In this document: positions 3,607 to 58,853 of the stretch, one piece after another
How positions within the stretch are numbered: position 1 is the first letter of the stretch
Layout: each line of letters starts with the position of its first letter
Virus record (IMG/VR): IMGVR_UViG_3300024331_000070
Coordinates: 3,615-67,614 of that record
Strand: one strand, 5' to 3'
DNA from: a virus
Lineage: Duplodnaviria; Caudoviricetes
DNA: 64,000 nt
Translations under genes and position numbers: made by a program
Notes under the pieces: model-generated
Databases searched by the model: none
The model's input: the letters and a program-made list of their open reading frames with translations, nothing else
Told to the model about the DNA's origin: nothing

Positions 3607-3893
3607 AGCTACACGGAAGCTGCGGCTCAGTCGACGTTGGTCCCGGCTATCGATTCACCGATAGCGACGGAATGCAATGGGAGATCGTGCGAGAGACGGA
3701 CAGCGGCATATACAGCCCCGTGGGCGTTGGCGGGACGAACATCGTGGAGTGTCGGCACATCGGAGGCGAGGCCACCAACATTTGGAAGCGCTACCTCAAA
3801 GGCGATTTAGGCGAATGGTGCGGCGATAGTCTCGCATGCGCGATAATTGGCCACCAAAGTAGAGCGCTGCGGAGGCAGGGGAGCGGGGCATGA
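3603..3893 (+). CDS. Hypothetical protein
   Basis: GTG start overlapping the upstream stop; part of ORF 3402-3893. Confidence 0.5.
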   Translation: MKLHGSCGSVDVGPGYRFTDSDGMQWEIVRETDSGIYSPVGVGGTNIVECRHIGGEATNIWKRYLKGDLGEWCGDSLACAIIGHQSRALRRQGSGA

Positions 3894-46630: not shown

Positions 46631-49153
46631 TTAATATTTCAAAGCGTCATAATCACTTTCATACTGCCCCTGCGTCCCGCGTCCGTATTTGTGGCCCTGC
46701 GGAGTCGGGGCGACGGGGTGCGCGAACGTCAGGCAGTTGAAGACAAGGATGTCGTTCGCGTAGTAAGCGTTATGCCGCTCAAGCGTCAGGTTATAGACGA
46801 CTCTCGGCGGCACGCTTTCTGTTGCCACATACACGGGAACAACACGCAGTCGCGCGATGGCGGTTCGCCATAAACTGCTTGCCACACCACGCACAAGCTC
46901 GCTGATCCGTGAAATAGGTCCGGAAGGCAACGGCCTGCATGCAGGCGCTAGAACAGAACCGACTACGGGATTGAAAGAATGTTTCGTATGCTTTTCCGCA
47001 GTGCGAACATTTGGCCTCGACTGGCTCTCGACCCTTCCAAGATCGCTTTCCATTAGCGCTGTGCCAATCGCGTCCGTCGGGAGAGGCGTGCCAAGCGCGA
47101 GCAGCATCTTGTGCCTGCGCAAGATATGAGATGTTGGCGGCTCGCGCTTCGGGATCAGATAGCCGCTCTCGCATATGCTCAGACTGATGGCTGCCCTCGG
47201 GCCGAAGCTCAAGATTGTCCGGCGCATTATTTCGCCAATTCCGGTCGACGTGATGAACCTCAAAGCCCTTTGGTATAGAGCCGAAATTGTCATCCCACAC
47301 GCGCCGATGAAGAAGGCGCTCGGCGTCACCCTTCCGTCCCGACTGATAATATCGACCGCTTGTTTGAATCCGATATTTCTGACAACGGTACAGCACATAC
47401 TCAGGGCGCGCCATGCTACCAATCTCCATCGCGAATATGGTTCAATCGCGATAGTTAGCGGTAACGCATCCAGACGGCAAACGCCATAGCCCCACACAAA
47501 TATCCTGTGTTCTCCCCTTCCGGTAAGGCTTTTTCCGTTGGAAAAGTCCGCGGTCGTCAATGACGTTGTTTCGCGCGCCCATTTGATTGCGACGCGCTCC
47601 GAACCGAATGGGGTTGTTACTTCGTCGCCGACCGACAAACTCTCGATTGGTCGCTTTCCGATCGGCGTTTGGATGAGCGTTCCGGCCACGAAACAAAGCG
47701 CGTCACCGTCGTCAGGGCTCGCCAGCCCTCGCTTGCGCATGTGCTCCTTCTTCTCCAGCACCACGCAGTCGCGGCCGTCCTTCTGAGCGTAGCCGTATTC
47801 GACGGCTGGAAGCTCCGCGGCCAGTTCCTTGTCGTCGTCGATCATGCCTCCGGTGAGCCAGTCCTTCATCCGGCCCCACATCTCGGCGCGCTTGTTGTAA
47901 TACCAGACCCCGGAGTTGGTCTGCTGCATGTCGCGGTCCGGGTTGGAGCCGAAGTCGATGCCCATGACCGGCAGCCTGAGGTAATTGCAGCGGTCGACCA
48001 CCCCGGCCCCAGGGCCACCGGCATCGATGAACACCGCGTCTGGCTGGTAGCGGTGATAGGCCTCCGCAACGCGGGCTGCGAGCTGCATCGTGTCCAGCCC
48101 GTGGAACTTCATGGGCTTGATGGATCGCGCGTCCCGCCCCCTGCGGAAACGGATCACCGACTTGTCGTTGCCGAACCGGGCGACATCGACGCCCATGACC
48201 AACGGATCGTAAAGGGTAACGTCGGCGTCCCGGCTCGAGTCCTGTGCGGCAGCTACTACGTCCGCTGAGATGAATTGCGTCGATCCTGACCGCGGGAACT
48301 GGGAGAGGACGCGGACGCGGACGAAATCCGAATCCATTCCATAGCTGTCGATCCACTCCTTGATCTGCGCCTTGTCCGACATCCGCGCGGTGCGGGTGTC
48401 GATGTGCCAGGATTTCCAGAGGTGGGCGTTCTTTCCCCCGGCGAACAGCGTACGGAAGTGCGTCGTGGTGCGGGTCGGGTTGCCGAGGCACAGCCAGATG
48501 ATGTCGGTGTCTTCGGCACCGGCCAGGATGCCCTCGGCCTCCTGAAAGATCGACGTGGCGATCGCGGCGCTCTCGTCAAACCCATAGATAATTCGCCGTC
48601 CGGCGTTGTGGAAGCCCGCGAAAGCTTCCGGCTGGTGCTCGTCCCAGGTAATCGCGTCGCAACGCCAGCTATCCTTGCGATGCGCCTCGATCGATCGAAA
48701 CCGCCGGTCCCCCGGCTCGAACCAGTGCGCCCACAGCGACATCCGCAGCCACTTGGAAATCTCCGGCCACGTCGATGTGGTGAGCTGCGGCCCCGTATTG
48801 GCGGTGATCCTGCACCGGGTATCGACGCACGTCGTCATGCCCCAGTTGATAATCCAGGCCATGAGAGCGGATTTGCCTGGTCCGACACCGCCGGCTACGG
48901 CGATGCGGATAGGTTGGCGCTTGCCTAAGTTGTCCCGGATGTAGGCCAGCACCTCGGCCTGCCAATCGTCCGGGCCTTGGTACTTTTCGAGCAGCGACCA
49001 GGGCTCGCCCCAGGGATAGGCGACCTTGACATAGCGCAGGGGATCCCGCGCGCAGGAAGCCGCGAGCTCGATCAGCCGGAATTCGTCGTCCTCAGCCGAG
49101 GGCGCGCTTGATGGCGGCGTCGAGGCGGCTGCCGATGTCGACTTTGACTTCAT
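46631..49153 (-). CDS. terL: Terminase large subunit, intein-containing
   Basis: Walker A GGVGPGKS, Walker B IIYGFDES, LGNPTR, MGVDVARFGND, SPDDGDAL then CLTFA after the intein. Confidence 0.95.
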   Translation of the reverse strand: MKSKSTSAAASTPPSSAPSAEDDEFRLIELAASCARDPLRYVKVAYPWGEPWSLLEKYQGPDDWQAEVLAYIRDNLGKRQPIRIAVAGGVGPGKSALMAWIINWGMTTCVDTRCRITANTGPQLTTSTWPEISKWLRMSLWAHWFEPGDRRFRSIEAHRKDSWRCDAITWDEHQPEAFAGFHNAGRRIIYGFDESAAIATSIFQEAEGILAGAEDTDIIWLCLGNPTRTTTHFRTLFAGGKNAHLWKSWHIDTRTARMSDKAQIKEWIDSYGMDSDFVRVRVLSQFPRSGSTQFISADVVAAAQDSSRDADVTLYDPLVMGVDVARFGNDKSVIRFRRGRDARSIKPMKFHGLDTMQLAARVAEAYHRYQPDAVFIDAGGPGAGVVDRCNYLRLPVMGIDFGSNPDRDMQQTNSGVWYYNKRAEMWGRMKDWLTGGMIDDDKELAAELPAVEYGYAQKDGRDCVVLEKKEHMRKRGLASPDDGDALCFVAGTLIQTPIGKRPIESLSVGDEVTTPFGSERVAIKWARETTSLTTADFSNGKSLTGRGEHRIFVWGYGVCRLDALPLTIAIEPYSRWRLVAWRALSMCCTVVRNIGFKQAVDIISRDGRVTPSAFFIGACGMTISALYQRALRFITSTGIGEIMRRTILSFGPRAAISLSICESGYLIPKREPPTSHILRRHKMLLALGTPLPTDAIGTALMESDLGRVESQSRPNVRTAEKHTKHSFNPVVGSVLAPACRPLPSGPISRISELVRGVASSLWRTAIARLRVVPVYVATESVPPRVVYNLTLERHNAYYANDILVFNCLTFAHPVAPTPQGHKYGRGTQGQYESDYDALKY
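46736..47695 (-). mobile_element. Intein (320 aa, TerL residues 487-806)
   Basis: Block A CFVAGTLIQTPIGKRPIESLSVGDEV, block B TGRGEHRIF, blocks F/G VYNLTLERHNAYYANDILVFN followed by Cys. Confidence 0.92.
46791..47414 (-). CDS. HNH homing endonuclease overprinted in an alternative frame inside the intein
   Basis: LLHRRVWDDNFGSIPKGFEVHHVDRNWRNNAPDNLEL plus CxxC zinc fingers; GGAG upstream of ATG 47414. Confidence 0.85.
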   Translation of the reverse strand: MARPEYVLYRCQKYRIQTSGRYYQSGRKGDAERLLHRRVWDDNFGSIPKGFEVHHVDRNWRNNAPDNLELRPEGSHQSEHMRERLSDPEARAANISYLAQAQDAARAWHASPDGRDWHSANGKRSWKGREPVEAKCSHCGKAYETFFQSRSRFCSSACMQAVAFRTYFTDQRACAWCGKQFMANRHRATACCSRVCGNRKRAAESRL

Positions 49154-49613
49154 GTTTGTCGGTGAAGAGCCCGTGGTGGCGGCCGAGGTCGACCAGGGCG
49201 GCCCGCTTGTCGTAGAGCTTGAGCTTCACCCGCTTGACTTCGCGGGCTTCCTCGCCGCCGCCATCCATGTACGTGTCATAGGTGACCTCGTGGATCGCCG
49301 CACCGTGCTCGCGCGTAAGCTGAGAGATATCAAGTAGTTGACCGTGCGCGCCGACATAATCCAGCATGTTGCTGCGCGCCAGCAGGGTGAGGCCCTGGAG
49401 GGTCTCGCGGCGGTCCATCACTGTGGCGTCTGCGGCGGCTTCTTTCAATTCGGCGATGCGGGCGGCAATCTTAGGATTTCTCAGTAATTGGCTGGCGCTC
49501 TGGTCGGCGCCGCGCTTGCTGTAGCCAGCAGCTGCGTAGGCGGCGCCGGCCGCTTCGCCCTTGACGATCCCGAGGCAGAACGCCTCGTGCCGTGAGTTCT
49601 TCAGCTGCGGCAT
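49092..49613 (-). CDS. terS: Terminase small subunit
   Basis: LKNSRHEAFC...AYAAAGYS...ASQLLRNPKIAARIAEL; KLKLYDKRAAL.DLGRHHGLF. Confidence 0.9.
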   Translation of the reverse strand: MPQLKNSRHEAFCLGIVKGEAAGAAYAAAGYSKRGADQSASQLLRNPKIAARIAELKEAAADATVMDRRETLQGLTLLARSNMLDYVGAHGQLLDISQLTREHGAAIHEVTYDTYMDGGGEEAREVKRVKLKLYDKRAALVDLGRHHGLFTDKHEVKVDIGSRLDAAIKRALG

Positions 49614-58464: not shown

Positions 58465-58853
58465 ATAACCTCCGATATTTCGGCGCGCCGCCGCCGTCCT
58501 TGGGCTATCGCGCTATTCTCTCCCGTCCGATTTCTGCATTTCTCAAGGAATCCAGGGGCATTCAGATTTTCCTTCCAAGTGCCCCATTTCAAATTTTCAG
58601 GCCGATCATTCGTCCGGCTTTCATCCAAATGCATGCACAGGTGACCGGGAGGACGAGGTCCGTGAAAGGCCTCGCAAACCAATGTGTGCTTCTCTACGGT
58701 TCTGCGGCGCCCATCAGCGAATCTCACCGTGACGCGACCGTATCCCTTGGTGCGCCCTATCCACGAATTGAGGATTTTGAGAGGGCCGCGCACCTGTCCA
58801 AATTCATTGGCAAAATGCCCAGGGGCCGACGGGATTGGCTTCCAGTTCTCCAT
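58461..58853 (-). CDS. NUMOD4-like/HNH homing endonuclease
   Basis: ENWKPIP; HTLVCEAFHGPRP...HLD...NDRPENLKWGT.KEN. Confidence 0.88.
   Translation of the reverse strand: MENWKPIPSAPGHFANEFGQVRGPLKILNSWIGRTKGYGRVTVRFADGRRRTVEKHTLVCEAFHGPRPPGHLCMHLDESRTNDRPENLKWGTWKENLNAPGFLEKCRNRTGENSAIAQGRRRRAEISEVI

Follow-up and report, generated by a model that had tools for sequence, protein, structure and literature searches.

Introduction

The usual place of an intein's endonuclease domain is an in-frame loop between the splicing blocks. Here, we describe an out-of-frame arrangement in the large terminase gene (terL) of a virus of the Caudoviricetes, known from the metagenome-derived IMG/VR record IMGVR_UViG_3300024331_000070. 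The window, meaning the whole stretch of DNA that was analysed, is a 64-kb part (positions 3,615 to 67,614) of this 67.6-kb record. In its terL gene, a mini-intein and an HNH homing-endonuclease gene that lies out of frame in the loop of this intein very probably make up a composite mobile element.

As a kind, out-of-frame intein endonucleases have been known since 2025, when Gosselin, Arsenault & Gogarten (bioRxiv 10.1101/2025.01.02.630785) described inteins of actinobacteriophages whose homing endonuclease is endonuclease VII-like and lies 'in reading frame 3 relative to the intein'. They proposed invasion by a free-standing endonuclease and considered the layout to be rare and probably transient. 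The element in the window resembles these inteins in many respects: the endonuclease open reading frame (ORF) lies on the same strand, at the same offset (frame 3 = -1) and between the splicing blocks, the in-frame filler is open and without recognisable structure, and terL is among the hosts. The nucleases differ, however, because theirs is endonuclease VII-like (IPR004211) while that of the window is an HNH_3 protein, I-HmuI-like and with two zinc modules; moreover, the layout that was called rare and transient is found, in the type seen in the window, in 62 loci and in phages of several bacterial phyla. The Gordonia phages named in that study are absent from our tblastn matches. An earlier note on this DNA, made from the sequence alone, thus implied more novelty than the literature allows; what is new relative to the 2025 report is the HNH_3 nuclease family, the spread over phages of several phyla and the finding that the arrangement is demonstrably old and under selection.

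Two other systems place a complete endonuclease gene within or between parts of a host gene. In the ShiLan domain (Arsenault, Gosselin & Gogarten, Genes 2025, PMC11855218), an HNH gene is inserted out of frame into the DNA methylase of a phage and is actively homing. As in the window, a complete HNH with its own start codon lies in another frame of a stop-free host ORF; there, a splicing domain is undetectable and the filler remains in the host protein, whereas the filler of the window is predicted to be excised with a HINT intein. Dassa et al. 2009 (PMC2677866) described fractured genes, in which split inteins lie around a free-standing endonuclease gene. There too, a free-standing-type endonuclease gene is found at the endonuclease position of the intein, but the host gene is in two ORFs and trans-spliced, whereas terL of the window is a single uninterrupted ORF of 840 codons.

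Collaborative homing, in which a free-standing endonuclease works together with a self-splicing intron next to it (cyanophage psbA; T7-like DNA polymerase), was reportedly described in 2009 by Zeng and colleagues and by Bonocora and Shub, and is a proposed route to composite mobile elements. The likeness is that a free-standing endonuclease adjoins its putative target gene and that a splicing element sits at the target site. Collaborative homing uses introns, however, while the splicing element of the window is an intein, so that an invading gene must keep the host frame open. Finally, Bacillus phage SPO1 has an HNH homing nickase, I-HmuI (PDB 1U3E), whose gene lies in a group I intron and which carries a C-terminal helix-turn-helix. 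The best structural match of the HNH protein of the window is to this nickase and runs over N-terminal beta-hairpins, the HNH core and helices, but the protein of the window has two four-Cys zinc modules at its C-terminus and its gene lies inside an intein.

Results

An HNH gene overprinted on the terL intein

The terL precursor ORF (46631..49153, minus strand, as are all features of this locus) encodes 840 amino acids (aa) without internal stop in the ORF listing and gives weak Terminase_6C and Hint_2 matches. It is made of an N-extein of 486 aa (47696..49153), whose C-terminal end reads SPDDGDAL, an intein of 320 aa (46736..47695), which runs from Cys1 to Asn320 and is followed by a +1 Cys, and a C-extein of 34 aa (46634..46735; CLTFAHPV...ALKY), with the stop codon at 46631-46633. 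Read one base shifted on the same strand (terL frame +2, equivalent to -1), the DNA of the intein holds an HNH_3 homing-endonuclease gene (46791..47414) of 207 codons plus a TAA stop, which falls within the intein. This ORF occupies intein codons 94-301, its TAA lying 19 codons ahead of the intein end; an alternative upstream ATG at 47429 would give a longer ORF of 212 aa (46791..47429). A Shine-Dalgarno-like GGAG (47424..47427), which codes for part of W-R in the terL frame, stands 9 nucleotides (nt) 5' of the ATG at 47414.

The earlier note had reported this intact HNH gene, with its GGAG, its TAA inside the intein and its C-terminal CxxC zinc fingers, as well as more than 620 nt over which both frames stay open, and all of this is borne out: the shared open stretch measures 624 nt, and scans of the two frames with hidden Markov models return Hint_2 in the terL frame and HNH_3 (PF13392) in the -1 frame. 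The latter match is strong (E 1.8e-12, 47.1 bits against a cut-off of 24.8, and 49.9 bits in the genome search), and at E <= 0.1 the Pfam scan of the HNH frame contained no Endonuclease_7, HNH_3 alone being reported. The Pfam match range (47199..47315; residues 39-77 of the 212-aa ORF) marks the catalytic core, HH...N...H, and H59, H60, N72, H81 and H85, which are invariant among 47 HNH homologues, are all present in the window. Two C-terminal four-Cys zinc modules (C141...C201; 46827..47009) have weak similarity to zinc fingers of the FCS/YacG type, and their eight Cys, arranged in CxxC/Cx3C pairs, are invariant across homologues. In total, 48 full-length homologues of the protein were collected, at 34-64% identity.

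The AlphaFold model of the HNH-frame product is confident, with a predicted local distance difference test score (pLDDT) of 94.4, and has an elongated, multi-domain shape. VIA-align ranked I-HmuI (1U3E) at the top for this model (Z 7.2 over 116 residues, 2 Z units over the next row), and a profile search of solved structures gave marginal matches to zinc fingers and to the 1U3E chain of I-HmuI.

The same phage has two further HNH_3 genes, at 58566-58691 (minus) in the window and at G000:C1:1784-1918 (plus) outside it, with open frames of 130 and 242 aa; the nested gene is the only one of the three to lie in an intein.

The splicing element

In the translation of the terL ORF, the intein borders read ...DDGDAL, then CFVAGT...NAYYANDILVFN, ending ILVFN, then CLTFAHPV. 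When the exteins of the window are joined, the resulting DDGDAL-CLTFAHPV aligns to the intein-less TerLs SPDCADSL-ALTFSAPV and SPDLADAL-CLTFSG, and intein-less relatives are continuous across the insertion point (SPDLADAL-ACGF or SPDCADSL-ALTF). The insertion is a class-1 Hint_2-type mini-intein in the conserved SPDxxDAL-xLTF motif near the C-terminus of the large terminase. That its splicing blocks are intact, as the earlier note had it, agrees with the invariance of Cys1, block-B His63 and the terminal Asn320 among 36 aligned inteins, and with the +1 Cys that follows the intein in all resolved flanks of the nested loci described below. Block B of the window reads GRGEH, with the invariant His63 but without the Thr of TxxH, a residue that is variable among relatives.

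The centre of the intein shows no nuclease in the terL frame. Hint_2 is the sole Pfam match in this frame (residues 1-44, E 2.5e-9, above the cut-off), and the Pfam scan of the intein returned no nuclease family. The AlphaFold (AF2) model of the terL-frame product shows, over residues 1-95 and 285-320, a HINT fold of high confidence (pLDDT 89-97), composed of a beta-rich N-terminal lobe (residues 1 to ~95; 47411..47695; pLDDT 89-97), which corresponds to conserved alignment columns, and of a C-terminal lobe (residues ~285-320, VYNLTLERHNAYYANDILVFN; 46736..46843; pLDDT 91-96), which corresponds to a near-invariant alignment block. Foldseek matched the HINT part to a bacterial intein-like domain and to mini-inteins (2LWY, E 3.8e-7, TMt 0.84; 6BS8; 6QAZ), and also to 6RIY. 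Between the lobes, residues ~96-284 (46844..47410) form a filler or linker with low confidence (pLDDT 36-70) and no Pfam family, the shadow translation of the HNH gene. The GC content of the intein region is 52-59%, versus 61-67% in the other parts of terL.

The same layout in other phages

Scanning viral contigs with an alignment of the 47 HNH homologues yielded 80 loci. Counting the window and loci from other homologue searches as well, 62 loci (the window and 61 others) have a nested layout, in other words an intact HNH ORF that lies fully within a long ORF. In every one of the 62, the HNH gene is in terL frame +2 (= -1) and the third frame is closed. The geometry is also constant: the inteins measure 304-359 aa (mostly 313-325), the HNH gene starts at intein codon 86-93 and it stops 8-20 codons ahead of the intein end. 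Identity among these loci goes down to 35-60%, and the layout extends to phages whose hosts are Firmicutes, Actinobacteria and Proteobacteria. When the intein region served as query, some 45 long proteins of terminase size (~730-1170 aa) matched all 320 residues at 30-45% identity, with Hint-type domains and without an HNH domain in the terL frame.

Layout, offset and position within the intein are identical in no fewer than four phages in culture, Clostridium phiCDHM19, Tetrasphaera TJE1, Acinetobacter Highwayman and Rhodobacteraceae LS06-2018-MD07. In the four cultured-phage records (L089, NC_028996 443-2842; L090, NC_019930 terL; L091, OZ038341; L092, OP947163), terL is one coding sequence (CDS) and the nested -1-frame HNH gene, of 170-305 open codons, is unannotated. 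tblastn also located the HNH under CDSs labelled terL or 'hint domain protein' in Vibrio phages 1.238.A/B and 1.245.O.

The flanks of L009-L088 reveal three points of insertion close to one another: SPD^C(A/G)DAL, DAL^CLTF and, further upstream, MKTK^C...N^CGRSPD in L074 (3205-4170). The intein-HNH unit is found across different terL Pfam families, and some TerLs of nested loci have a second, upstream insertion (ORFs of 1000-1350 aa).

Several relatives show signs of decay. In L044 (3441-4320) and L049 (3441-4300) the HNH frame has a premature stop while the intein frame is still open. P0076 (751 aa, from a cluster of 35 members) belongs to the same terL intein family but has a far shorter filler, with 67% query coverage, and by its sequence looks like a case in which the nested HNH gene was partly deleted. 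These three states fit what is expected from a homing cycle. L068 (3201-4400) is alone among the relatives in having an intact HNH and one stop in the terL-frame filler; the stop could be an error of assembly, or it could mean that this terL is dead or is a fractured gene.

Metagenome-derived viral contigs can hold indel errors, and in principle the HNH could truly be an in-frame domain of a canonical intein, thrown out of frame by two indels in the contig; the earlier note had named such an error, merging the two frames, as what would overturn its reading. This would take two compensating indels, one at each end of the HNH, yet in an independent ENA assembly of a near-identical phage (L093) terL differs by 13 substitutions and 0 indels over 2523 nt, and the terL protein P0049, from an independent assembly, is 99% identical. 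The same offset moreover recurs in the 61 other loci and in the four cultured-phage genomes, and the nested loci have an in-frame stop 5' of the HNH start as well as a stop before the intein end. No protein of at least 364 aa with this HNH was found, which is weak evidence that points the same way. The probability of such errors is thus negligible, and a sequencing artefact is excluded. Two of the three substitutions between L093 and the window that fall in the overlap alter the HNH protein, but three sites are too few to weigh.

At the other end of terL, a terS-like ORF (49092-49613, minus) overlaps the annotated terL start (49153) by 62 nt. The terS/terL overlap is identical in L093, where the upstream gene has Terminase_2. 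The real start codon of terL in the window may be further downstream than annotated.

Openness of and selection on the two frames

Across the nested loci, the openness of both frames is not what chance would give. The terL frame has 0 stops in 54/54 distinct nested homologues but a mean of 6.8 (range 1-13) in free-standing relatives, whereas stops in the third frame number about 17 in the nested and free-standing groups alike; when nested genes are shuffled synonymously, the median probability of an open terL frame is 0.047. It is these comparative data, and not the window alone, that make the dual openness significant.

The earlier note had also suggested comparing dN/dS (omega) between the frames, and the two frames indeed differ sharply. 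Over 35 nested pairs with HNH identities of 0.60-0.92, the median omega from naive Nei-Gojobori estimates is 0.18 for the HNH frame versus 0.95 for the terL frame, and for the window and its nearest relative (L009) the values are 0.19 and 1.43, respectively. In nested pairs, position 3 of the HNH codons is the most variable (identity 0.37-0.44 versus 0.49-0.68 at positions 1 and 2), and since it corresponds to position 2 of the terL codons, conservation is not directed at the peptide read in the terL frame. The HNH frame is the one under purifying selection; the terL frame is merely held free of stops.

If there were true dual coding, that is, if the middle of the intein were a functional domain in the terL frame and both readings were selected as protein, the terL-frame identity of nested pairs could be raised, and it does exceed, by 4-6 points, the identity in the virtual frame of free-standing controls that have diverged equally in their HNH; the 30-45% identity across the whole intein could be taken in the same sense. 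This small excess is, however, explained by stop avoidance, and the invariant filler residues W95, F110, G154 and G202 fall on invariant HNH codons or on the start codon. Together with the terL-frame omega of ~0.95, the low pLDDT (36-70) and the lack of a Pfam match, this makes dual coding scarcely credible.

The opposite view would be that the HNH ORF is a silent relic, open by chance in GC-rich DNA, within an intein that is inherited vertically. The decayed HNH frames of L044 and L049 speak for it, as does the fact that 21% of synonymous shuffles leave both frames open when the window is taken alone. But a relic should not have an omega of 0.19 against L009 and of ~0.18 family-wide, nor should it have kept all catalytic His and Asn residues and all eight Cys, its Shine-Dalgarno motif and its ATG, and a sequence that is modelled with a pLDDT of 94.4. 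We therefore regard a relic as improbable, and purifying selection on the HNH gene as the better account.

Translation signals of the HNH gene

A start codon is found at the homologous position in all 52 distinct full-length nested genes (ATG in 42, GTG in 10). Shine-Dalgarno-like 4-mers at -5 to -17 precede 56% of the nested and 56% of the free-standing genes, against a background of 15%; for GGAG/GAGG the figures are 44% and 44%, with control backgrounds of 7.7% and 6.5%, respectively. Judging from these signals, independent internal initiation of the HNH on the terL mRNA would be the simplest reading.

Programmed -1 ribosomal frameshifting sometimes expresses overlapped phage genes, and as the offset is -1 on the same strand, the HNH could instead be made as a terL fusion (N-extein, N-intein, HNH), an alternative that the earlier note had kept. 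Yet an X_XXY_YYZ slippery heptamer lies near the junction in only 1/52 nested loci, and the window has none; in the HNH frame of the nested loci, a stop codon precedes the HNH start. The conserved ATG or GTG, Shine-Dalgarno motifs as frequent as in free-standing genes and the existence of homologues of equal length as stand-alone genes likewise argue for a protein with its own start, and the failure to find an in-frame fusion, although weak evidence, does not help the alternative. We consider a frameshift-made fusion very unlikely and retain internal initiation.

Free-standing homologues and the HNH tree

Not all homologues are nested. In all free-standing cases with upstream sequence (19/19 loci, plus L002-L004), the HNH gene lies 0-62 nt 3' of an intein-less terL, in which the SPDxADAL..TF motif at the C-terminus is uninterrupted. 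The slot that it occupies is ~25-40 codons beyond the intein insertion point, and the next gene in most such loci is a portal-sized ORF. As free-standing HNH genes are found beside intein-less terL and nested ones at the same motif, a single lineage appears to exploit one region: one nuclease lineage would use a single target region, the 3' end of terL, from two positions between which it has switched several times.

A quick tree of the HNH intersperses nested with free forms, and its well-supported branches force at least three switches. The HNH of the window belongs to a group with 95% support, in which seven genes are nested and three are free. The interleaving of nested, free and decayed states in unrelated terL families is a signature of a mobile element. 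The constant -1 offset, on the other hand, is by itself no proof of a single origin, since it is the sole viable one in the intein: the other shifted frame has about 17 stops, and at zero offset terL would end at the HNH stop. The earlier note had further proposed that a free-standing HNH gene invaded a mini-intein. The unrooted tree is compatible with movement in either direction, into the intein or out of it.

The free-standing HNH genes of L002 (3921-4630), L003 (2217-2926) and L004 (1760-2469) lie 51 nt 3' of an intein-less terL and cluster with nested genes in the tree. Their +1 frame is open almost throughout (231 codons), which has a chance probability of ~19% at 60% GC. They may represent a recent exit from the nested state, or its precursor.

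The constant tie to terL, within the intein or directly 3' of the gene, also has to be weighed against a function in DNA packaging. HNH proteins beside terminase genes are said to be packaging components, a finding credited to Kala and colleagues in 2014, and the HNH could be a terminase packaging cofactor (HK97-type, cos cleavage) and not a selfish homing enzyme. But its family is HNH_3 and its best fold match is the homing nickase I-HmuI; at 207 aa and with zinc modules, it differs from a small protein of the PF01844 type. Also against a packaging role, which we judge unlikely compared with homing, are the alternation of nested, free and decayed states on the tree, in unrelated terL families, and the GC content of the intein region, below that of its flanks.

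Discussion

The observation made in the earlier note is confirmed and its interpretation supported: terL of the window carries a mini-intein with an HNH gene overprinted in the -1 frame. The following cycle would best explain the arrangement. Ribosomes that translate terL can traverse the HNH gene without meeting a stop, producing a precursor in which a filler of ~190 residues, unconstrained in sequence, separates the HINT halves. The intein would then excise itself together with the filler, giving back a TerL of 520 aa, while the 207-aa HNH protein would arise through internal initiation on the terL mRNA. During co-infection, the HNH protein may nick or cut intein-less terL alleles near the insertion site, and repair would copy the intein and the HNH gene into the cut allele, which amounts to homing.

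Several points weigh against this interpretation. Three steps are inferred from sequence, namely that the HNH gene is translated, that splicing proceeds despite a filler of 190 aa, and that homing takes place. On the side of the nuclease, the model resembles I-HmuI to a moderate degree (Z 7.2, root-mean-square deviation 7.4 Å), and Foldseek, run on the PDB with the complete HNH model, had no match at E <= 0.001 (I-HmuI, E 0.2). On the side of the intein, two canonical residues, the Thr of block B and the penultimate His, lack conservation, and the intein of the window ends in ...VFN with Phe in place of His. The dual openness is not significant for the window alone (P = 0.21, the share of shuffles of the HNH gene by synonymous codons after which the terL frame is still open), and the omega values are naive in that they ignore the overlap of the frames, although the contrast between them is large nonetheless. 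Lastly, the HNH tree is quick and unrooted and has many weak forks, which makes both the number and the direction of the switches uncertain.

Is the overprinted state a brief stage towards an in-frame intein endonuclease, or a lifestyle of its own? We tentatively raise the second possibility, that overprinting is old and stable, while leaning somewhat away from it. On this proposal, the nuclease might have moved repeatedly between the intergenic slot between terL and portal (intron-less homing) and the loop of the terL intein (intein homing), a history that we offer as conceivable and not as the favoured one. It might equally never have become an in-frame fusion, since the -1 offset alone leaves terL readable, a suggestion about which we are as reserved. 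If overprinting were indeed an old and stable lifestyle, it would provide, in cultured phages, a natural test system for the 'splicing first, endonuclease invades later' model of intein origin.

As a practical matter, the nested HNH gene lacks annotation in all four records of cultured phages that were inspected. Nested forms, and free-standing forms beside an intein-less terL, constitute natural donor and recipient alleles. More generally, and provided that the HNH gene is translated as predicted, an intein can depend on a separately translated, overlapping endonuclease gene, and selection can keep such an overprinted arrangement over deep divergence and across phages of many host phyla. The terL locus described here is relevant to the question of how a splicing element and a free-standing homing endonuclease come together in a mobile intein.

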